Source: Escherichia phage vB_EcoM_ULIM9 | Sequence record: OQ850288 | DNA length: 64,000 nt | Strand: one strand, 5' to 3' | Made by a program: the position numbers and the translations under genes | The notes under the pieces: generated by a model | The model's database searches: none | What the model was told of the DNA's origin: nothing | What the model saw: the letters and a program-made list of their open reading frames with translations, nothing else | In this document: positions 3,295-17,074 of the stretch, piece by piece | Layout: each line of letters begins with the position of its first letter | How positions within the stretch are numbered: position 1 is the first letter of the stretch

Positions 3295-3806
3295 TCATCA
3301 CCTTTATTAGCAAACTCTTTGTGTAAACGTTGACGTTCCCTATTTACAACCTCTGCTGCTTCAGCAATCGTGTCATAGTTGCCGAAGAAGTAAACCCTCT
3401 TCTTAAAAGTTATCTGTGTAGCCCACTTACCATACTGTTTATTGTAGTACACACCTTTAACACCTGATTTATTGTTCTTATTGAGCAATCTATTACATTG
3501 GTTCTCTGATAACGTACATGCTCTAAGATTTACCCAGCGATTATCTAATGTTACATGATTTTTATGGTCAACACACTCAGGGAGGTAACCATCCATATAC
3601 AGAACAGCTAGTGTATGTGCATAATAACCCTTACCAAACAAATAAATTCTGATGTAACCTTTTAAGTTTGTACCTGCAACAGAGCCAATTTTTGTGTGTC
3701 TAGCAGACTTCTTAATCCAAGTAAAGACCCCTGTTTCGGGGTCATAGTGCAGGTATTCTTTAAGAGTTTGTTGGGTTAACATTTGGTGTCCATCCATACT
3801 TGTCAA
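3291..3806 (-). CDS. HNH homing endonuclease with AP2-like DNA-binding domain
   Basis: YLHYDPETGVFTW N-terminus, HNH core ...CVDHKNHVTLDNRWVNLR..., AP2-like GVKGVYYNKQYGKWATQI; true start probably an internal Met (about 3782) because the 5' end overlaps the exonuclease gene. Confidence 0.7.
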   Translation of the reverse strand: MTSMDGHQMLTQQTLKEYLHYDPETGVFTWIKKSARHTKIGSVAGTNLKGYIRIYLFGKGYYAHTLAVLYMDGYLPECVDHKNHVTLDNRWVNLRACTLSENQCNRLLNKNNKSGVKGVYYNKQYGKWATQITFKKRVYFFGNYDTIAEAAEVVNRERQRLHKEFANKGDE

Positions 3807-10417: not shown

Positions 10418-10674
10418 GTAAGCCTCTTTTAAGTAACTATTAAGTTTTAATCTTTTATCTTAACGTATTCTATACGTTATACTTTAAAGCTTTTTAAAAG
10501 CTATTAAATAATCTTTTAAGAGTTTTAAAGTATCTGTATAGTTAAACTGTTAAGTAACCTTTTAAGTAAAAACCCACTTCGCAAAGATTAACACCTTGTC
10601 AAGTACATTGTCAACTTGCTTTTTATAATTTTTTGCAGTAATGTATGAGGTTAATGATTTTAGAGGGAGTAAAA

Positions 10675-13374
10675 ATGGAAAACGTAGATTTTAAGAACTT
10701 ACATTTAGTTGGTGATACAGAAACTGATGGTTTACTCCTTGAGTTCACTAAAGTTCACGTAATGGCTTTTGCAGACTATAAATCTGACGATGAAGAGCCA
10801 CCTGTATGGGTCTTCACAGATGAGCCTATCCTCGGTCACAAGTACACTAAGTACATTAAGGGTGGTTTACGTGAAGGTGTTGAGTTTGCGTTAAAGGCAA
10901 AACGACTTTGTATCCATAATGGTCTCGGTTATGACTGGTGGGTTTTCAATCACATTGCACCGGATTTATGGAACTTTGATAATCCAAAATGTAAGCCGTG
11001 GAGTAATTTCTTTCAGGACTCTCTTATCCAGTCTCGTGTTCAGTGGATGGATAGACCAACTCCAAAGGGTTATAAAGGTGCTCATGGTTTGGCTGCATGG
11101 GGTGCTCGTGTTGGTGTTCGTAAGCCAGAGATTGAGCATTGGGGTGTGTGGAATGCAGAAATCTTCACTCGTGTTGTAGAAGATATTCGTATTAACGCCA
11201 AAACTAAACGGGCACTTGATAATGAGTATCTCAAGCTTAAGAAGTGTGGCATAGACACTTATGAAACCTACATGCGAGCTAAAGAAACATCTTTCTGGAT
11301 GAGTCAACAAGCTATCAATGGCTGGAAAGCTGATAAAGAGCTTATGGAGTTCCATGTAAAGGAACTTGACAAGTTGACTAATGAGCTTGCTTCAGAGGTT
11401 GAACCACATCTACCACCAACTATTAAGACCAAAGGTAAAGTCACTGGAGAAGAGTTTGCAAAAGCTTGGAATGAGTATGTTGAAACATTTGGTCATGCAG
11501 ATGGACTGAAAAGAATTACCAAGTACCCTAAGACAAAGTATCGTCAGCAGGTACGTAATGGTGAGATGCAGACATATGAAATCAAGCCATTTGGTAAGCC
11601 AACTACAAAGATTTTTAACATTGAAAAGAGAAATTGCTATACACCAACCAACTCTGTAACTGGTGAAGAGTACAAGGAAGGCTTTGTAGCAATGAAGGAT
11701 GCTCGTGCAATTTGCAATGAGTTGAATGCAAAGATTGGTAAGAAATGCAAAGACTGGAAGCCAGTAAAAACAGTCAAAACTGTGAAGTACTATAACAGCC
11801 ACGTTGTTAACCACTTTGAGCTTGAGTCAAGTCGCTACACAGGTTTGATTGATGCACCATATACACCAATTGAGTTTGAAGTTTCTCGTATGACTCAGGT
11901 AGCAGTTGTTAAAGACTACTTGAAATCAGTTGGTTGGATTCCAGATGACTGGAACTACAAGAAAGACTCAGACGGTCGCCCTATCAAAGTTTGTCGTTTC
12001 AAAGACAATAAAAAGATGATTACAAAACATCCTAAGTGGCAGGAAATGGTTGAGCGGTGCGGTTTGAGCTATGTTGAGCATGAAGGTGTACAGTACATTG
12101 AGCATAACTGGTCTGTTAAGAAGTACACAGACTTACTTGAACCTTGTCTGATTAGGACTTCACCAAAACTTACTGAATCATCTTATGATACGATTGAAGG
12201 TGAGCTTGGACAGAAGATTGCTAAGTACTATACTTTGATGCACCGACGCAGAACTATTGAGAACTCAAAGGATGATGAAAAAGGTTGGTTGAACCAGATT
12301 CGTCCTGATGGTCGCCTTAGTGCTGGTGCAATGGTGTTTGGTACTTCAACTGGACGTATGACACAATATGGTATTGTAAACGTACCGTCTGGTGCTGCTG
12401 TCTATGGAGCACCTATGAGGGCAGTGTGGATTTGTGAAGAGGGGACTAACATTGTTTCTGTTGACCAGAACTCAGCCCAGCTAGTTCTTCTTTGTAACTT
12501 TATGGGTGATGAAGACTTCACTAAAGCGGTAACTGAGGGTAAAGAGTCAGTAGAATTTACCAAGCAAGAAGATGGGAGATATTATTGCAAACATCTTGAT
12601 AAGTACCTTAATCCAGAAACTGATAAGTATCTTCGTTATGATGCTGAGAATGACCTCTATGAAGTCTACACAGGTACTGATGCACATACACTGAATAGTA
12701 TTTACTTTGGTCTGAACAAGGAAGAAGACATTGTTCGTTGTAGGGAGACACAGGATGAGGAACTTCTCCACGAGATTACAAAAGGTCGTAAGAAGAGCAA
12801 AAATGGCATCTACGCCCTGTTATTTGGAGCCGGAGACGAGAAGTTTGCAAAAACTATCAAGGCATCATCTACGGAAGAAGGTGCATTGACTAAACAAACT
12901 TACTATATGCGTCTGCCAAAGATTAAGAAGTTGCTTGATAGCTTAGAAGCCGATTTTAAGGCGTCTAAAAAGGCTCTGGAAGAGGTTTTTGGGAAGAATT
13001 CTTCAATTGCTAAAGGTGGTTATATCAGGGTCGCTGGAGCATGGATATGGTGCAAATCTCCACATAAACTACTGAACTACCTCCTGATGAGTTCGGAAGC
13101 ACAGATTCAGAATGAGGCCATCAACCTAGCAGCAAGAAAAGCCTGTGAAGATGGCCTGACAAAACTGAATGCTCGAAAACCAGCTATCGGAGCAAGGTTA
13201 CTTCTGGCATATCACGATGAAAATAGTTGGGAATGCCCAGAGGGTATGACACATGATATGAAAGCAATTGCTGACTGGATGTATGGACAAGCTTCAAAAA
13301 ACTTAGGTTTGAGGAAAGAAACACTTGTAACTGGTACAGCAAAGGTTGGTAAGAGCTGGTTGGAGGTACATTGA
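10675..13374 (+). CDS. DNA polymerase, family A (Pol I-like) with 3'-5' exonuclease domain
   Basis: ORF track frame 10645-13374; start moved to ATG 10675 (MENVDFKNL), which follows an AGGGAG Shine-Dalgarno; DTETDG exonuclease motif near N-terminus; about 900 aa. Confidence 0.85.
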   Translation: MENVDFKNLHLVGDTETDGLLLEFTKVHVMAFADYKSDDEEPPVWVFTDEPILGHKYTKYIKGGLREGVEFALKAKRLCIHNGLGYDWWVFNHIAPDLWNFDNPKCKPWSNFFQDSLIQSRVQWMDRPTPKGYKGAHGLAAWGARVGVRKPEIEHWGVWNAEIFTRVVEDIRINAKTKRALDNEYLKLKKCGIDTYETYMRAKETSFWMSQQAINGWKADKELMEFHVKELDKLTNELASEVEPHLPPTIKTKGKVTGEEFAKAWNEYVETFGHADGLKRITKYPKTKYRQQVRNGEMQTYEIKPFGKPTTKIFNIEKRNCYTPTNSVTGEEYKEGFVAMKDARAICNELNAKIGKKCKDWKPVKTVKTVKYYNSHVVNHFELESSRYTGLIDAPYTPIEFEVSRMTQVAVVKDYLKSVGWIPDDWNYKKDSDGRPIKVCRFKDNKKMITKHPKWQEMVERCGLSYVEHEGVQYIEHNWSVKKYTDLLEPCLIRTSPKLTESSYDTIEGELGQKIAKYYTLMHRRRTIENSKDDEKGWLNQIRPDGRLSAGAMVFGTSTGRMTQYGIVNVPSGAAVYGAPMRAVWICEEGTNIVSVDQNSAQLVLLCNFMGDEDFTKAVTEGKESVEFTKQEDGRYYCKHLDKYLNPETDKYLRYDAENDLYEVYTGTDAHTLNSIYFGLNKEEDIVRCRETQDEELLHEITKGRKKSKNGIYALLFGAGDEKFAKTIKASSTEEGALTKQTYYMRLPKIKKLLDSLEADFKASKKALEEVFGKNSSIAKGGYIRVAGAWIWCKSPHKLLNYLLMSSEAQIQNEAINLAARKACEDGLTKLNARKPAIGARLLLAYHDENSWECPEGMTHDMKAIADWMYGQASKNLGLRKETLVTGTAKVGKSWLEVH

Positions 13375-13377
13375 TTA

Positions 13378-13911
13378 ATGGATTTAATTTTACAAAAACG
13401 TTTAAAGGAGCTGCTGCACTATGACCCCGAAACAGGGGTCTTTACTTGGCTTCGTAGAGAAGGTAAATCAAGAGCTGTTAGTGTTTTTAACAGTAATTAT
13501 GCAGGAAAGGTGGCAGGTAATATCCAGACTGATTCAAGTGGTCATAAACAGATTAGTATCTATTTTGACAAGAAAGCACATAAAGCACACAGGCTCGCAT
13601 GGCTTTACGTGTATGGCAAGATGCCAAAAGGTATCATTGACCATATCAACGGAGACTCGCTTGACAACAGGATTGTAAACTTAAGGGAAGCAGATGATTT
13701 TCAAAGTGCTTGGAATAAAGGTAAACCAGTCACCAATAAATCTGGGTACAAGGGTGTAAGTCTTAAGAAGAAGTCTGGTAAGTGGGTCGCACAGATAAGT
13801 TATAAAGGTAAGAAGATGTTTTTAGGTCACCATGACACACCAGAAGAAGCCCATAAAGCTTACTGTGAAGCTGCTATTAAACTCCACGGAGAGTTTGCAA
13901 AACTAAGTTGA
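13378..13911 (+). CDS. HNH homing endonuclease with AP2-like domain (free-standing, directly after DNA polymerase)
   Basis: 177 aa; LHYDPETGVFTW, HNH core GIIDHINGDSLDNRIVNLR, AP2-like YKGVSLKKKSGKWVAQISYKGKK; paralog of 3291-3806. Confidence 0.8.
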   Translation: MDLILQKRLKELLHYDPETGVFTWLRREGKSRAVSVFNSNYAGKVAGNIQTDSSGHKQISIYFDKKAHKAHRLAWLYVYGKMPKGIIDHINGDSLDNRIVNLREADDFQSAWNKGKPVTNKSGYKGVSLKKKSGKWVAQISYKGKKMFLGHHDTPEEAHKAYCEAAIKLHGEFAKLS

Positions 13912-13962
13912 CAAGGTTCTCATGGAAGAGTACCTTATACTATATCTTATATAGGAGGGCTT

Positions 13963-14172
13963 ATGAGCCACCGTGGAAGAACCCATGCAGCGATGATGAA
14001 AGATGCTTCAAAGGAAACTATCAAGAACCGTAAACAGAAGTTGTTTGAGAGGATGAACAGGTTAATTGACAATTCATCTCTTTCTGGTTCTGAGAAGGTT
14101 TTCTTGAAAGGTAATCTGAAAAGCATTGCACAAGAACTTATTGACATTGAGTATTGGAGACATCAAAAATGA
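13963..14172 (+). CDS. hypothetical protein (69 aa)
   Basis: ORF track; first of four short overlapping plus-strand ORFs. Confidence 0.4.
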   Translation: MSHRGRTHAAMMKDASKETIKNRKQKLFERMNRLIDNSSLSGSEKVFLKGNLKSIAQELIDIEYWRHQK

Positions 14173-14387
14173 CACTTGCAGACGTTATTCAGCAACTTCA
14201 TGATAACTGCTATACTCCAGAGTTGATTCAGGAGATGCTTATTGTAGTGATGCCTAGTAAGTTCGTAAAAGGTTTTAATAGTGAATCTTTAAAGTCTGCG
14301 CATATCCTTATTGTTGACGGTAAGATTGCAAGAGACCGCACAGGAGTCCTTAAGGGCGAACGTATTGATATTGACTTAGTCTTTTAA
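14154..14387 (+). CDS. hypothetical protein (77 aa)
   Basis: ORF track. Confidence 0.4.
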   Translation: METSKMTLADVIQQLHDNCYTPELIQEMLIVVMPSKFVKGFNSESLKSAHILIVDGKIARDRTGVLKGERIDIDLVF

Positions 14388-14396
14388 GGGAAAACT

Positions 14397-14603
14397 ATGG
14401 AAGTCCTAGTAAACTATATCTATTGTTATGATGTTGTTCACTCCACTACAACGGTAGCTCAACGTAACCCAATCGTCCCACGAGAAGGTGAGTTTGTTCG
14501 CATTGATGGTTGGACTTACACTGTTGAAAGCATCATTCATAAGTTTGATGTTGCTGGCGATGTTCAAGTTATCGACGTAGAGATTGGTGGTAAGAGAAAA
14601 TGA
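14397..14603 (+). CDS. hypothetical protein (68 aa)
   Basis: ORF track; GGAA-type RBS upstream. Confidence 0.4.
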   Translation: MEVLVNYIYCYDVVHSTTTVAQRNPIVPREGEFVRIDGWTYTVESIIHKFDVAGDVQVIDVEIGGKRK

Positions 14604-14791
14604 ACAAAGAAGACAAGCATAAAAATGCTGTACGAACTCCTGATGGGAAGATTCAATCATTCACCCTGACAGTTGGTGGAAAGCCATTCCGTTGCCACTG
14701 CGGAGCAAACTGCTTTCATAAACCAGATAAAAATGACTTAGAGCTTTACGCATGTAATGCTTGCAATACTTGGTATCATTCAGAGGAATAA
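14600..14791 (+). CDS. small zinc-ribbon protein (63 aa)
   Basis: CHCGANC...CNACNTW four-Cys arrangement. Confidence 0.4.
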   Translation: MNKEDKHKNAVRTPDGKIQSFTLTVGGKPFRCHCGANCFHKPDKNDLELYACNACNTWYHSEE

Positions 14792-14792
14792 A

Positions 14793-15896
14793 ATGACAAC
14801 ACTGTACAAACAAAATAAAGATGGTTCCTTCAACGTCTGGTCATGTGTTGCTGTAGGTGATAAAGTTATTACAACCTATGGTAAAGAAAATGGCAAGATG
14901 ATGTTTGAAGAGTATACAGCAGAACCGAAAAACATCGGTAAAAAGAATGAGCGTAACGCTGAACAGCAAGCTCTCTTTGAAGTTGCTGCTAAGTATAAAA
15001 AGCAAGTTGACCGCAAAGGTTATGCTTACACAAAAGAATCTGCACAGAATACTGAGAAGGTAGGTGTACAGCTTGCTCATGATGCTGCAAAGGTTAGTCA
15101 TGCAAAGTATCTGAAGTTCCCTGCTGATACTCAACCAAAACTTGATGGTGTTCGTTGTAGAATTTCAAGACACTTAAGTATTGGCAGTGTATTTACAGCA
15201 TATTCTCGTGAGAACACTATTTATAAAATTCCTACTGAGCTAATACCTGACATTATGGCAATGTTAAGGCTCCATAAAGACGTTGATGAATTTGATGGTG
15301 AAATCTATGCTCATGGGTTGGACTTAGAAGATATTGTCTCCATGATTAAAAATGAAGACAATCCTGACCGACACCTACTCAAGTTTTACTGGTATGATAT
15401 CTGTGACAGTACTAAGACGTGGCCTGAGCGTAGAGATATTATTGAGACTTCACCATTGAATGACTTTAGAGACGGCTGTAAAGTTGTTCCTGTTAAGTCT
15501 CGTCGTGTAAATTCTTGGGAAGAGTTTGATGAAGCTCATGATAAGTGGGTTGAAGCTAAGTTTGAAGGTGCAATGTACCGTTCAATCTCTGAAGACTCCT
15601 TCTATGAGTGTTGTCACCGTTCATACTTCTTGATTAAACACAAGAAGATGCACACTGAAGAGTTTAAAGTGACTGGTGTCAAGACCGATAAACGTGGTCA
15701 TGGCAAGTTCGTTGTAGAGACGCTTCCTAACGTCTTTGTAGATGTTTCATGGAAAACTACCCATGAGAAGAAGCAGTATCTTGCTGAGCATCCTGAAGAG
15801 TTTATCGGGAAACCTTTAACGGTACAGTTTCAGAAGATGACTCGTAAGGGGTCTTTACAGTTCCCTGTTGGTCTCGTTATTCGAGACTACGAATAA
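14793..15896 (+). CDS. ATP-dependent DNA ligase
   Basis: Start moved from 14757 to ATG 14793 (MTTLYKQ) preceded by GAGG; adenylation motif KLDGVRC, plus FDGEIY, EGAMYR and LIKHKK motifs in ligase order. Confidence 0.8.
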   Translation: MTTLYKQNKDGSFNVWSCVAVGDKVITTYGKENGKMMFEEYTAEPKNIGKKNERNAEQQALFEVAAKYKKQVDRKGYAYTKESAQNTEKVGVQLAHDAAKVSHAKYLKFPADTQPKLDGVRCRISRHLSIGSVFTAYSRENTIYKIPTELIPDIMAMLRLHKDVDEFDGEIYAHGLDLEDIVSMIKNEDNPDRHLLKFYWYDICDSTKTWPERRDIIETSPLNDFRDGCKVVPVKSRRVNSWEEFDEAHDKWVEAKFEGAMYRSISEDSFYECCHRSYFLIKHKKMHTEEFKVTGVKTDKRGHGKFVVETLPNVFVDVSWKTTHEKKQYLAEHPEEFIGKPLTVQFQKMTRKGSLQFPVGLVIRDYE

Positions 15897-15903
15897 AAAG
15901 TTG

Positions 15904-15931
15904 TTGACATAGAAAATTTGGTGAGTATACT
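15904..15931 (+). promoter_or_regulatory. sigma70-like promoter (TTGACA-16 nt-TATACT)
   Basis: TTGACA at 15904-15909, 16-nt spacer, TATACT at 15926-15931, directly after the ligase stop. Confidence 0.45.
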
Positions 15932-16111: not shown

Positions 16112-16140
16112 TTGACAAGTCAGGTGTTATAGCTTATTTT
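16112..16140 (+). promoter_or_regulatory. sigma70-like promoter (TTGACA-17 nt-TATTTT)
   Basis: TTGACA 16112-16117, 17-nt spacer, TATTTT 16135-16140, about 45 nt upstream of ATG 16185. Confidence 0.4.
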
Positions 16141-16184: not shown

Positions 16185-16568
16185 ATGAAAAAGGTTTTAT
16201 TAGCTGCTGCAATGGTTATGGCAATGAACTTACCAGTCAATGCAACAGAACTTCCAAATGTGGACTTATCAGGTGTTCCAGAAGATACTTGCCAGATTGT
16301 AAAAGGTGTTGCGCTATCTAAAGGTGAGTTACTTAAACCAATCTCTGAAGAGTCTTTAACAGAGATGACTGATAAGGTGACTGACTACCAGTATCGTGTT
16401 CTTGCAGAGTATTTCCTGCAATCTGCAAATATTAAAGAGAAACACCATGATGATATTGATGTACAGGTTATGCTCAATCATCGTATCCAGTTTAAAGAAG
16501 ATTTGATGCAAAAAGCTATGTATGGTGTTGAGTATTTCTTAGAAAACAGAAGCTGCACAGGTATTTGA
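16185..16568 (+). CDS. secreted/periplasmic protein with N-terminal signal peptide
   Basis: 127 aa; MKKVLLAAAMVMAMNLPVNA followed by polar mature region. Confidence 0.5.
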   Translation: MKKVLLAAAMVMAMNLPVNATELPNVDLSGVPEDTCQIVKGVALSKGELLKPISEESLTEMTDKVTDYQYRVLAEYFLQSANIKEKHHDDIDVQVMLNHRIQFKEDLMQKAMYGVEYFLENRSCTGI

Positions 16569-16569
16569 T

Positions 16570-16782
16570 ATGGCTCTTAAAAAGTTACATCCCAGAAGCG
16601 GTTATGGTAAGATAATTGACGATACAGACGGCTTTACAGTCTTTACAGTTATCTGCCAAGATGATTCACAGATTGAAAAGGCTCTTGACGATTATCTTAA
16701 CGATGAACGTGAAAAGGTTCGGGCTACAAACATAGATTCATTGATTGACACTTCACGCAAACGGAAGAAGAAAGATGAATGA
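16570..16782 (+). CDS. hypothetical protein (70 aa)
   Basis: ORF track. Confidence 0.4.
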   Translation: MALKKLHPRSGYGKIIDDTDGFTVFTVICQDDSQIEKALDDYLNDEREKVRATNIDSLIDTSRKRKKKDE

Positions 16783-17074
16783 GGTTTTTGACCCTTATGC
16801 CCCACAAGATGATTGGGAGGCTGATAGAGAGGCTGAAATGGAGAGTTATATTTGTCCAATGGATGTAGACGAAATGAGAGACTTCGTTTCACATCGTTTT
16901 AAGAGAGAGATTAAATCCAGAGGTCTTTCTCAAGAACAAGTTGCTAAAATTTGTGGTATCTCTCAGGCTCGTGTATCCAACATAATCCACCTCACTGGGA
17001 ATGTTTCCCTTGAGTATATGTTGGAAGTATGTGAAAAATTTGGTGTTAGTTTTAATTTAAGGTTGGCAGATTAA
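16775..17074 (+). CDS. putative helix-turn-helix DNA-binding regulator
   Basis: ORF track frame 16745-17074; start moved to internal ATG 16775 (MNEVFDPY); LSQEQVAKICGISQARVSNI resembles an XRE/Cro-type HTH. Confidence 0.4.
   Translation: MNEVFDPYAPQDDWEADREAEMESYICPMDVDEMRDFVSHRFKREIKSRGLSQEQVAKICGISQARVSNIIHLTGNVSLEYMLEVCEKFGVSFNLRLAD

Follow-up and report, generated by a model that had tools for sequence, protein, structure and literature searches.

Four small ORFs between the HNH endonuclease and DNA ligase genes of a Felix O1-like phage: likely separate accessory genes, the last encoding a predicted zinc-ribbon protein

In Escherichia phage vB_EcoM_ULIM9, four small ORFs lie one after another between the genes for an HNH endonuclease and a DNA ligase. 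Are they genes at all, do they act as one unit, and what might their products do? The window analysed here is a stretch of 64,000 nucleotides from this phage (sequence record OQ850288). The region is matched by 259 phage records, the best of them Felixounavirus at about 95% identity, and the window belongs to this Felix O1-like group. The first-pass annotation had placed four plus-strand ORFs between the two genes; they are seen as described, with corrections. The features are as follows.

13378..13911, + strand: gene for a free-standing HNH/AP2 homing-type endonuclease, 177 aa (Pfam HNH_3 9.1e-15, AP2 1.4e-12; phrog_99 5e-72)
13908..13962, + strand: conserved spacer 5' of the first small ORF (sequence reading)
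13963..14172, + strand: ORF1, 69 aa (phrog_5180 6e-46, full length)
14169..14387, + strand: ORF2, 72 aa (phrog_4230 1.7e-42, full length)
14397..14603, + strand: ORF3, 68 aa (phrog_4427 8e-46, full length)
14600..14791, + strand: ORF4, 63 aa, predicted zinc-ribbon protein (phrog_5768 5e-40, full length)
14793..15896, + strand: gene for an ATP-dependent DNA ligase, 367 aa from ATG 14793 (Pfam DNA_ligase_A_M 4e-07; phrog_114 2.7e-94)

The four proteins are covered from residue 1 to the end by PHROG families 5180, 4230, 4427 and 5768, all of which are classed as 'unknown function'. In over 200 Felixounavirus genomes these genes are already listed as hypothetical proteins, and their layout is normal phage gene packing. 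Shine-Dalgarno-like motifs are found upstream of every start. The start of ORF2 is placed at ATG 14169 (72 aa) and not at TTG 14154 (77 aa), because relatives without ORF1 have the same ATG directly after a GGAGG site. Similarly, ATG 14793 and not the in-frame ATG 14757 is read as the real start of the ligase gene, because the same ATG overlaps the ORF3 stop in relatives that lack ORF4. The chain of overlapping stop and start codons described earlier is found in part. ATGA overlaps exist at the ORF1/ORF2 (14169-14172) and ORF3/ORF4 (14600-14603) junctions, but ORF2 and ORF3 are separated by 9 nt, and ORF4 and the ligase gene by 1 nt. Nine ATGA junctions joining ORFs of at least 50 aa are present in the window, compared with about 0.4 in shuffled sequences, so the overlap is not peculiar to this segment.

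Alleles from relatives were used to examine coding status. The 14-29 unique alleles per ORF are all intact (e.g., 19/19 for ORF1 and 27/27 for ORF2), and the NG86 dN/dS ratios are 0.056 for ORF1, 0.147 for ORF2 (codons 1-68), 0.108 for ORF3, and 0.117 for ORF4. Variable sites at codon positions 1/2/3 number 9/5/34 in ORF1, 14/12/43 in ORF2, 20/15/53 in ORF3, and 21/14/46 in ORF4. Other reading frames have dN/dS of 1 or more, except an antisense frame with shared third positions. Homologues in other genera are 35-60% identical. These patterns indicate that ORF1-4 are real genes under strong purifying selection, as the earlier description of tightly packed small genes in a replication module had supposed. 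Conservation of the frames in relatives, whose absence the first-pass annotation had named among its refuting conditions, is found for all four (dN/dS 0.06-0.15, every allele intact), so they stand as genes. The reading of ORF1-4 as chance ORFs in AT-rich DNA without a protein product has next to no probability left: antisense ORFs of 66 and 84 aa in the same segment show that such sizes can arise by chance, but the comparative data (low dN/dS, intact alleles, third-position bias, and the behaviour of the alternative frames) already refute it, and the Shine-Dalgarno-like motifs, the homologues in other genera, and an RT-PCR signal in Felix O1 also stand against it.

Do these genes belong together? 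Among 31 related loci, ORF1 is missing in 11, ORF4 is missing in eight and duplicated in four, and most have extra ORFs between ORF2 and ORF3. For example, REP8 has no ORF4, pSJ21 has two ORF4 paralogues, and ph2-2, Felix O1, and Bas63 have two additional ORFs between ORF2 and ORF3. Deletions of small ORFs are clean, running from start codon to start codon. In the ORF4 allele shared by Felix O1 and Bas63, both paralogues are joined into a chimera that crosses over at the FHKPD codons. The comparison indicates that ORF1-4 are not a fixed unit but have been gained, lost, duplicated, and recombined independently. The segment shows small phage genes swapped as clean start-to-start cassettes, and tandem paralogues collapsing into chimeras.

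This distribution bears directly on whether ORF1-4 form one functional operon, in which translational coupling would set the stoichiometry of a complex (e.g., a replication or ligase accessory complex). Roughly one-quarter to one-third of related genomes lack ORF1, and likewise ORF4, in all combinations; other phage groups have either gene by itself in an unrelated setting. Although the genes share a strand, have two ATGA overlaps and very short gaps, and contain no internal sigma-70 promoter or terminator scoring above shuffled sequences, ATGA junctions are common throughout the window, and in most relatives extra ORFs interrupt the series between ORF2 and ORF3. That ORF3 always precedes the ligase gene, and overlaps the start of this gene in relatives without ORF4, fits an operon. 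Such an operon is nevertheless highly improbable, and the earlier reading of the chain as a single coupled unit is not supported, since its members are not co-inherited among the 31 loci and overlap at two junctions only.

The small ORFs could also be cargo or leftovers of homing-endonuclease mobility, carried along by co-conversion around the HNH cut site and having little function. Consistent with this, a free-standing HNH/AP2 gene lies directly 5' and is itself variable among the 31 loci, existing as several divergent alleles (47-99% identity) or missing, and the boundaries between modules are sharp. However, all four ORFs are under strong purifying selection, the presence of ORF1 is independent of the HNH allele and of HNH presence, and ORF4 variation is accounted for by recombination between its own paralogues, all of which makes this explanation improbable. 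ORF1-4 were also considered as homing endonucleases or their remnants and rejected, as no HNH, GIY-YIG, LAGLIDADG, or related domain is found in them (Pfam, NCBIfam, PHROG). A repeat search of the segment gave short chance matches only. A paralogue of the HNH endonuclease gene, 41% identical, exists at 3309-3785 on the minus strand of the window.

The spacer upstream of ORF1 (13908..13962) contains, in order, TTGACA, the imperfect palindrome GGTTCTC-N6-GAGTACC, TATACT, and a GGAGG ribosome-binding site. In relatives, too, this spacer stands directly after the HNH or the polymerase gene, with ORF1 (or, in loci lacking ORF1, ORF2) as the next gene. It may be a promoter or an operator; the 22 nt between TTGACA and TATACT are too long for a standard sigma-70 site. 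The spacer is unique within the window when searched for as a repeated motif, and its RNA fold is not significant (z = -0.8). In Felix O1, RT-PCR signals of ORF93, ORF90, ORF89, and the ligase gene are maximal at 25 min, placing them in the 'middle' class (Whichard et al. 2010, PMC3185647). These are the homologues of ORF2-4 and the ligase gene, and the 'early' expression that the first-pass annotation had assumed is not supported.

The explanation preferred here, including the binding proposed for ORF4, is that this Felix O1-like phage carries ORF1-4 as separate small accessory genes, and as a whole it is likely to be correct. ORF1-4 would occupy a part of the replication-module transcription unit that is prone to recombination, with the polymerase and HNH genes on one side and the ligase gene on the other. 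Judging from the layout, they are probably co-transcribed, one gene closely following the other. Both ATGA overlaps would reflect genome-wide packing and probably permit translational re-initiation, implying no functional unit. By computed character and charge, the four products are soluble proteins of about 8 kDa apiece. This is too small for enzymes, and each most likely acts by binding another macromolecule.

The first three proteins differ in character and spread. ORF1 (Felix O1 ORF94, Bas63 gp45) is hydrophilic and basic, with a pI of 10.2; being very basic, it may be a nucleic-acid binder. Its tblastn matches come from 284 phage records, among them those of Kolesnikvirus (53-59% identity) and of T4-like Karamvirus and Aeromonas phages (about 50%), and the homologue in Karamvirus PG7 adjoins a tRNA block. 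ORF2 (Felix O1 ORF93, Bas63 gp44) has homologues in 254 phage records, confined to Felixounavirus and Mooglevirus. Some genomes have an ORF2 paralogue that is 35-42% identical, and the last two to four codons of ORF2 differ according to the downstream module. ORF3 (Felix O1 ORF90, Bas63 gp41) is predicted to be all-beta and is 100% identical in SSBS18_WS_10_728; with a shallow alignment, only one of five structure models reached a pLDDT of 78. The gene adjoins the ligase gene directly or stands one to three small ORFs, either copies of ORF4 or others, away from it. Conservation of ORF2 and ORF3 extends across Felixounavirus and Mooglevirus. Pfam, NCBIfam, and PDB sequence searches with all four proteins gave nothing meaningful (in NCBIfam, two matches at 15-20 bits against cut-offs of 131-618), in agreement with the earlier statement that no domain is recognisable besides the zinc ribbon of ORF4. 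Word-indexed homologue searches found close relatives only, and a comparative Felixounavirus paper is silent on ORF1-4.

The C4 zinc-ribbon motif reported for the last ORF is indeed present, with predicted ligands C32-x-C34 and C52-x2-C55. ORF4 is predicted to fold round one zinc ion held by CxC and CxxC; note that the first knuckle is CxC, compared with the usual CxxC of zinc ribbons. Among 68 aligned homologues, C32 never varies and the other three cysteines (C34, C52, and C55) are kept in at least 90%, but C38 is not conserved. The spacing CxC-(15-19)-CxxC is found in 141 of the 150 top representatives, as is the family signature [FY]-R-C-x-C-G-[CA]-N-V-F-H-K-P-D...C-N-x-C. The AF2 model (pLDDT 88, pTM 0.70) consists mostly of short beta elements. 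In Foldseek, the structures nearest to it are zinc ribbons (DESR1, TFS4, and ribosomal zinc-ribbon proteins) at E of about 0.6 or worse, and no match in PDB or BFVD has E<=0.001. Searching PDB with a profile from the ORF4 alignment returned weak C2H2-finger noise only (E 0.03 or worse). ORF4 has no Pfam match at E<=1, and the family is absent from Pfam.

The ORF4 family appears from sequence searches to be large and almost exclusive to phages. A profile search found at least 574 representative clusters (50% identity) at E<=1e-3 and 107 at E<=1e-10, from enterobacterial myoviruses, actinophages, and uncultured viruses. A degenerate DNA motif pattern matched 11 viral-contig loci but only one locus in a set of genomes covering 185,579 species of bacteria and archaea, and no recurrent partner gene is found in the neighbourhoods of these loci. 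Homologues lie near rII/pnk in Kolesnikvirus and near a DNA methyltransferase gene in a Klebsiella phage, and ORF4 is 100% identical in REP6. An ORF4 paralogue is labelled as DNA ligase in GenBank (e.g., in pSJ21). This identity is rejected for ORF4, which has no Pfam ligase match and no tblastn match at E<=10 to the ligase gene of the window; the label probably stems from overlap with the ligase ORF.

ORF4 is 74% identical over 62 aa to gp40 of phage Bas63 (JohannRWettstein), with all predicted zinc ligands conserved. gp40 occupies the same position as ORF4, between gp41 (the homologue of ORF3) and the ligase gene, but its first 42 residues derive from the other paralogue (nucleotide identities to the window type: 70% against 93%). 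Sequence and position thus identify ORF4 as the orthologue of gp40, and the Bas63 allele reads as a recombinant of two paralogues. According to the PhageMaP preprint (PMC11482910), Bas63 g40 triggers the Hhe helicase-nuclease defence. g40 is dispensable, it is toxic only in Hhe-carrying cells when expressed alone, and its knockout gains fitness under the defence (PMC11482910, preprint). That 'g40' is bas63_0040, the ORF4 homologue, is inferred from the numbering: PhageMaP gene numbers match Bas63 locus tags for g65, g79, g80, g84, g85, and g124, but for g74 ('ribonucleotide reductase activator') bas63_0073 is a better fit than bas63_0074. Note that 'trigger' describes a phenotype and not a native function, and that the source of the Hhe result is a preprint, in which the protein concerned shares just 74% identity with ORF4.

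Because the Bas63 orthologue is dispensable and reportedly toxic only with Hhe, ORF4 most likely binds and perturbs a component of host or phage DNA metabolism. Hhe would sense the ORF4-type protein or the perturbation that it causes. Of the host-takeover or regulatory role suggested previously for the small proteins, the part concerning ORF4 is thus plausible through the reported activation of Hhe by its orthologue gp40 (preprint), but no function can be assigned to ORF1-3. No mechanism for Hhe turned up in a literature search, and other phage gene-essentiality preprints do not cover Felixounavirus.

ORF4, perhaps with its neighbours, may instead be a counter-defence gene of the anti-restriction type, which blocks a host immune or DNA-processing nuclease while Hhe, as a guard, detects that inhibition. 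One member of the family carries a fused Lar restriction-alleviation domain (P0018; L038), but the fusion partners of other members vary (NUDIX, MazG-like, and RyR domains), and none is consistent. Members adjoin DNA methyltransferase genes in two unrelated phages, and the same Bas63 region contains the Lar-like zinc-ribbon gene bas63_0032 and the reported DRT7 trigger bas63_0035. ORF4 is dispensable and patchy, as is usual for anti-defence genes, and gp40 was 'more non-essential' under several defence systems (PMC11482910). However, gp40 scored as a trigger and not as a counter, no defence is reported where it protects, and ORF4 has no similarity to known anti-defence proteins in Pfam, PHROGs, or PDB. 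A counter-defence function is therefore unlikely, although it survives better than the other alternatives.

A bolder extension of the preferred explanation is that the whole ORF4 family binds one conserved bacterial factor of DNA metabolism or surveillance, through which Hhe and possibly other defences detect infection. This is a speculative proposal that is probably wrong as it stands; if true, the family would be a general 'sensed effector' and a handle on Hhe activation. This large family, absent from Pfam, is tied by one preprint to the poorly understood Hhe. Relatives of the window provide a natural allelic series for studies of Hhe sensing: no copy, the allele of the window, the chimeric allele, and tandem paralogues.

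Several known systems resemble this locus. Lar-type and other small phage zinc ribbons (Pfam Lar_restr_allev PF14354) are likewise small, phage-encoded proteins with cysteine knuckles from early or accessory regions, and bind zinc as predicted for ORF4. Unlike them, ORF4 has no Pfam match, its first knuckle is CxC and not CxxC, and it has a distinct FHKPD loop.

T4-like phages have small hypervariable clusters of early and middle genes, each of 50-100 aa, with overlapping stops and starts; these genes are dispensable and patchy among relatives. The packing of ORF1-4 resembles such clusters, and the ORF1 homologue of Karamvirus PG7 sits in one, beside tRNA genes. T4-like phages are a different lineage, and we know of no named T4 gene that is any of ORF1-4.

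Within PHROG families 5180, 4230, 4427, and 5768, the proteins of the window are ordinary members and show no difference. The closest system is Felix O1 itself (NC_005282), in which ORF94, ORF93, ORF90, and ORF89, all annotated as hypothetical proteins, correspond to ORF1-4 in the same order between HNH ORF95 and ligase ORF88. Protein identities to the window are 99%, 94%, 96%, and 76%, respectively. Felix O1 has ORF92 and ORF91 between ORF93 and ORF90, both of which are absent from the window, and its ORF89 is the chimeric 72-aa allele running into the ligase gene, whereas the window carries the 63-aa allele.

The 2.6 kb around the four short reading frames ORF1 to ORF4 matches 259 phage records, nearly all of them from Felixounavirus (Felix O1-like myoviruses of Escherichia, Salmonella, and Shigella), the best being about 95% identical. 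The flanking genes are those named in the first-pass annotation, an HNH endonuclease gene upstream and a DNA ligase gene downstream. The features are:

10645-13374: DNA polymerase gene, a single 909-aa ORF, farther upstream than the HNH gene
13378-13911: HNH_3 + AP2 endonuclease gene, upstream flank
13963-14172 (+): ORF1, 69 aa
14169-14387 (+): ORF2, 72 aa
14397-14603 (+): ORF3, 68 aa
14600-14791 (+): ORF4, 63 aa
14793: ATG of the ATP-dependent DNA ligase gene, downstream flank

A mechanical ORF list opens ORF2 at TTG 14154 (77 aa). This start is ruled out by relatives without ORF1, in which ORF2 opens at an ATG directly after a GGAGG site; the real start is therefore ATG 14169. ATGA stop/start overlaps join ORF1 to ORF2 and ORF3 to ORF4, the gap between ORF2 and ORF3 is 9 nt, and the ORF4 stop lies 1 nt from the ligase ATG. 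ATGA junctions are a genome-wide habit of this phage: the window has 9 between ORFs of at least 50 aa, compared with ~0.4 in shuffles.

Three other features of the surrounding genes are recorded here. A further HNH/AP2-type endonuclease gene at 3309-3785 (-) is a paralogue of the 13378-13911 gene, with 41% identity (tblastn E 5e-34). In phages REP8 (L002) and pSJ21 (L003), the polymerase is annotated as two CDS ~230 nt apart (1-1575 of each locus), which could reflect a small insertion, an intron-like element, or a sequencing frameshift in the records. The 290-nt gap 3' of the ligase gene has strong sigma-70-like promoter matches at 15904-15931 and 16112-16140 (+), TTGACA-16-TATACT (11/12) and TTGACA-17-TATTTT, preceding a 127-aa ORF (16185-16568) with a signal-peptide-like N-terminus.

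ORF1 to ORF4 are real genes under purifying selection. Homologous alleles were taken from 31 related loci, some in GenBank phages and some in IMG/VR contigs retrieved by an ORF3 query.

Selection on the four ORFs (NG86 dN/dS; unique alleles, all intact; variable sites at codon positions 1/2/3)
ORF1: 0.056; 19 alleles; 9/5/34
ORF2 (codons 1-68): 0.147; 27 alleles; 14/12/43
ORF3: 0.108; 29 alleles; 20/15/53
ORF4: 0.117; 14 alleles; 21/14/46

dN/dS is at least 1 in four of the five alternative frames; the expected low value is seen in the fifth (antisense, sharing third positions). Every one of the four proteins has a full-length match to a PHROG family (E 5e-40 to 6e-46), and all these families are listed under 'unknown function'. 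The counterparts are ORF94, 93, 90, and 89 in Felix O1, and gp45, 44, 41, and 40 in Bas63. In Felix O1, RT-PCR detected expression of ORF93, 90, 89, and the ligase gene ORF88 with a maximum at 25 min, which places them in the 'middle' class (Whichard et al. 2010). The data contradict an origin as chance ORFs. Hundreds of genomes already list these genes as hypothetical proteins, and 100%-identical GenBank phage entries exist for ORF4 and ORF3.

The stretch from polymerase to ligase is a patchwork among relatives. The observation of four ORFs was essentially right and its interpretation reasonable; calling them a chain reads too much into the layout, since the genes are gained and lost independently among relatives. 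ORF1 is missing from 11 loci and ORF4 from 8, with two ORF4 copies in another 4, and the HNH gene is either missing or represented by alleles at 47-99% identity. In most relatives, Felix O1 and Bas63 among them, ORF2 and ORF3 are separated by two extra ORFs absent from the window. Some loci have an ORF2 paralogue (39-42% identical) upstream of ORF1, in the same order as in Mooglevirus. None of the 31 shares the exact arrangement seen in the window, with ORF1, a downstream-type ORF4, and no extra pair. Gene losses are clean, from start codon to start codon. Without ORF1, the conserved spacer and GGAGG directly abut the ORF2 ATG; without ORF4, it is the ligase ATG that the ORF3 stop overlaps, again within ...AGAAAATGAC.... 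Optional ORFs also occur: one between ORF4 and the ligase gene (~530 nt, L028 2893-3427, one contig) and a small one between ORF3 and ORF4 (~160 nt, 2705-2862 of four contigs, L013-L015 and L019). These further inserts at the same junctions indicate that the ATGA junctions are repeated insertion points. Both a four-subunit complex and an origin from homing-endonuclease debris are contradicted by the data.

The non-coding spacer 13908-13962 (+) contains TTGACA, GGTTCTC-N6-GAGTACC, TATACT, and GGAGG in that order. It occurs once in the window and lies ahead of the first small ORF in every relative examined, with or without the HNH gene or ORF1; it shows no significant RNA fold. The spacer may act as a middle promoter or operator, in agreement with the expression peak of the Felix O1 HNH gene ORF95 at 5 min (Whichard et al. 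2010) as against 25 min for the downstream ORFs. ORF1 to ORF4 would be co-transcribed with the ligase gene, possibly from this conserved 52-55-nt spacer, translation would re-initiate at the ATGA overlaps, and each product may act as a small binding protein. The ORF1 protein is hydrophilic and very basic (pI 10.2), and all its matches are unnamed. The ORF2 protein is mildly acidic; its PHROG family and all listed matches are annotated as hypothetical or of unknown function. ORF2 and ORF3 are near-universal in ~255 records. This presence, together with the strong constraint on all three, argues that ORF1 to ORF3 are useful to the phage.

ORF4 has a conserved four-Cys zinc-ribbon signature, with C32, C34, N37, F39, C52, N53, and C55 conserved. 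At E<=1e-3, a profile built from eight close homologues retrieves 574 representative clusters (at the 50% identity level), 107 of which reach E<=1e-10. Among the best 150 matches, whose consensus is [FY]-R-C-x-C-G-[CA]-N-V-F-H-K-P-D, 141 have CxC-(15-19)-CxxC, and in 104 of them the spacer is 17 residues long. Of these 141, 91% have the domain at the C-terminus, and the proteins are 51-234 aa long. The N-terminal extensions vary: Lar, RyR, MazG-like dATP/dGTP pyrophosphohydrolase, NUDIX, or no recognisable domain. A degenerate DNA pattern based on the motif hits 11 viral contigs as against one contig in genomes of 185,579 bacterial/archaeal species, so the family is essentially one of phages. 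It is absent from Pfam and NCBIfam. By Foldseek, an AlphaFold2 model (68-sequence alignment; pLDDT 88, pTM 0.70) retrieves nothing but generic zinc ribbons from PDB (none better than E 0.6) and nothing but uncharacterised phage proteins from BFVD (none better than E 0.12).

Felix O1, Bas63, and ph2-2 have an ORF4 allele that is a chimera of two paralogues. It matches the upstream pSJ21 paralogue at 91% identity over nt 1-126 and the downstream one (the window type) at 95-100% over nt 127-186, so a tandem pair has collapsed with a crossover at the conserved FHKPD codons. Several GenBank records label as 'DNA ligase' the upstream paralogue or an ORF4 allele overlapping the ligase gene (pSJ21, L003 3192-3395; phages heid, tootiki, DR094, JLBYU32, and fjerdesal). 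The labelled products show no ligase similarity, and the label therefore looks like annotation carry-over.

Beyond Felixounavirus and Mooglevirus, to which ORF2 and ORF3 are confined, genes of the four travel singly. ORF4 homologues lie near rIIA/rIIB and a polynucleotide kinase gene in Kolesnikvirus, adjoin a DNA methyltransferase gene in a Klebsiella Stephanstirmvirinae phage, and occur in Gordonia and Microbacterium phages; no recurrent partner gene was found among neighbours in unrelated phages. ORF1 homologues are found in Kolesnikvirus and, adjoining a tRNA block, in T4-like Karamvirus. Sequence nearly identical to that of Felixounavirus, at 87-97% protein identity to ORF3 and ORF1, also appears in two records named for other hosts, MG065664 ('Campylobacter phage A132') and GU169904 ('Staphylococcus phage SA1'), which are probably mixed or mislabelled phage preparations.

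The locus is of low-to-moderate interest, solely for the large uncharacterised ORF4 family and its link to the Hhe defence in a preprint, the one functional lead for the four. In genome-wide Bas63 knockouts by PhageMaP (Chen et al. 2024, PMC11482910), g40 is more dispensable under several defence systems. Plasmid-expressed g40 is reported to impair growth only where the cells have Hhe, a helicase-nuclease system encoded by one gene, and is called a trigger by the authors (PMC11482910). The gene numbers in PMC11482910 agree with the locus tags in GenBank for g65 (glutaredoxin), g79 (Prs), g80 (NAMPT), g84/85 (rIIA/B), and g124 (Ig-like), with the exception of g74, better fitted by bas63_0073; g32, called 'Lar-like', is a CPxCG zinc-ribbon protein. 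The ORF4 homologue is bas63_0040, 74% identical to the window protein, and the N-terminal two-thirds of gp40 come from the other paralogue. By homology only, the trigger role may extend to the window ORF4. The main alternative, of which there is a hint, is that ORF4 has a counter-defence role, with Hhe as a guard; the Lar fusion in the family and the methyltransferase genes beside its members point this way. As a trigger, ORF4 would perturb a DNA-metabolism component monitored by Hhe, or would itself be recognised.

A 99-aa helix-turn-helix protein at 16775-17074 (+) is 98% identical to Bas63 gp35 (bas63_0035). Bas63-035 is reported to be the phage activator of the DRT7 reverse-transcriptase/primase defence, with escape mutants mapping to Bas63-035 and toxicity on co-expression (2026 bioRxiv preprint 10.64898/2026.04.18.719102). 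Counterparts of two reported defence triggers, of Hhe and of DRT7, therefore lie at most 2.5 kb apart in the window's replication module.
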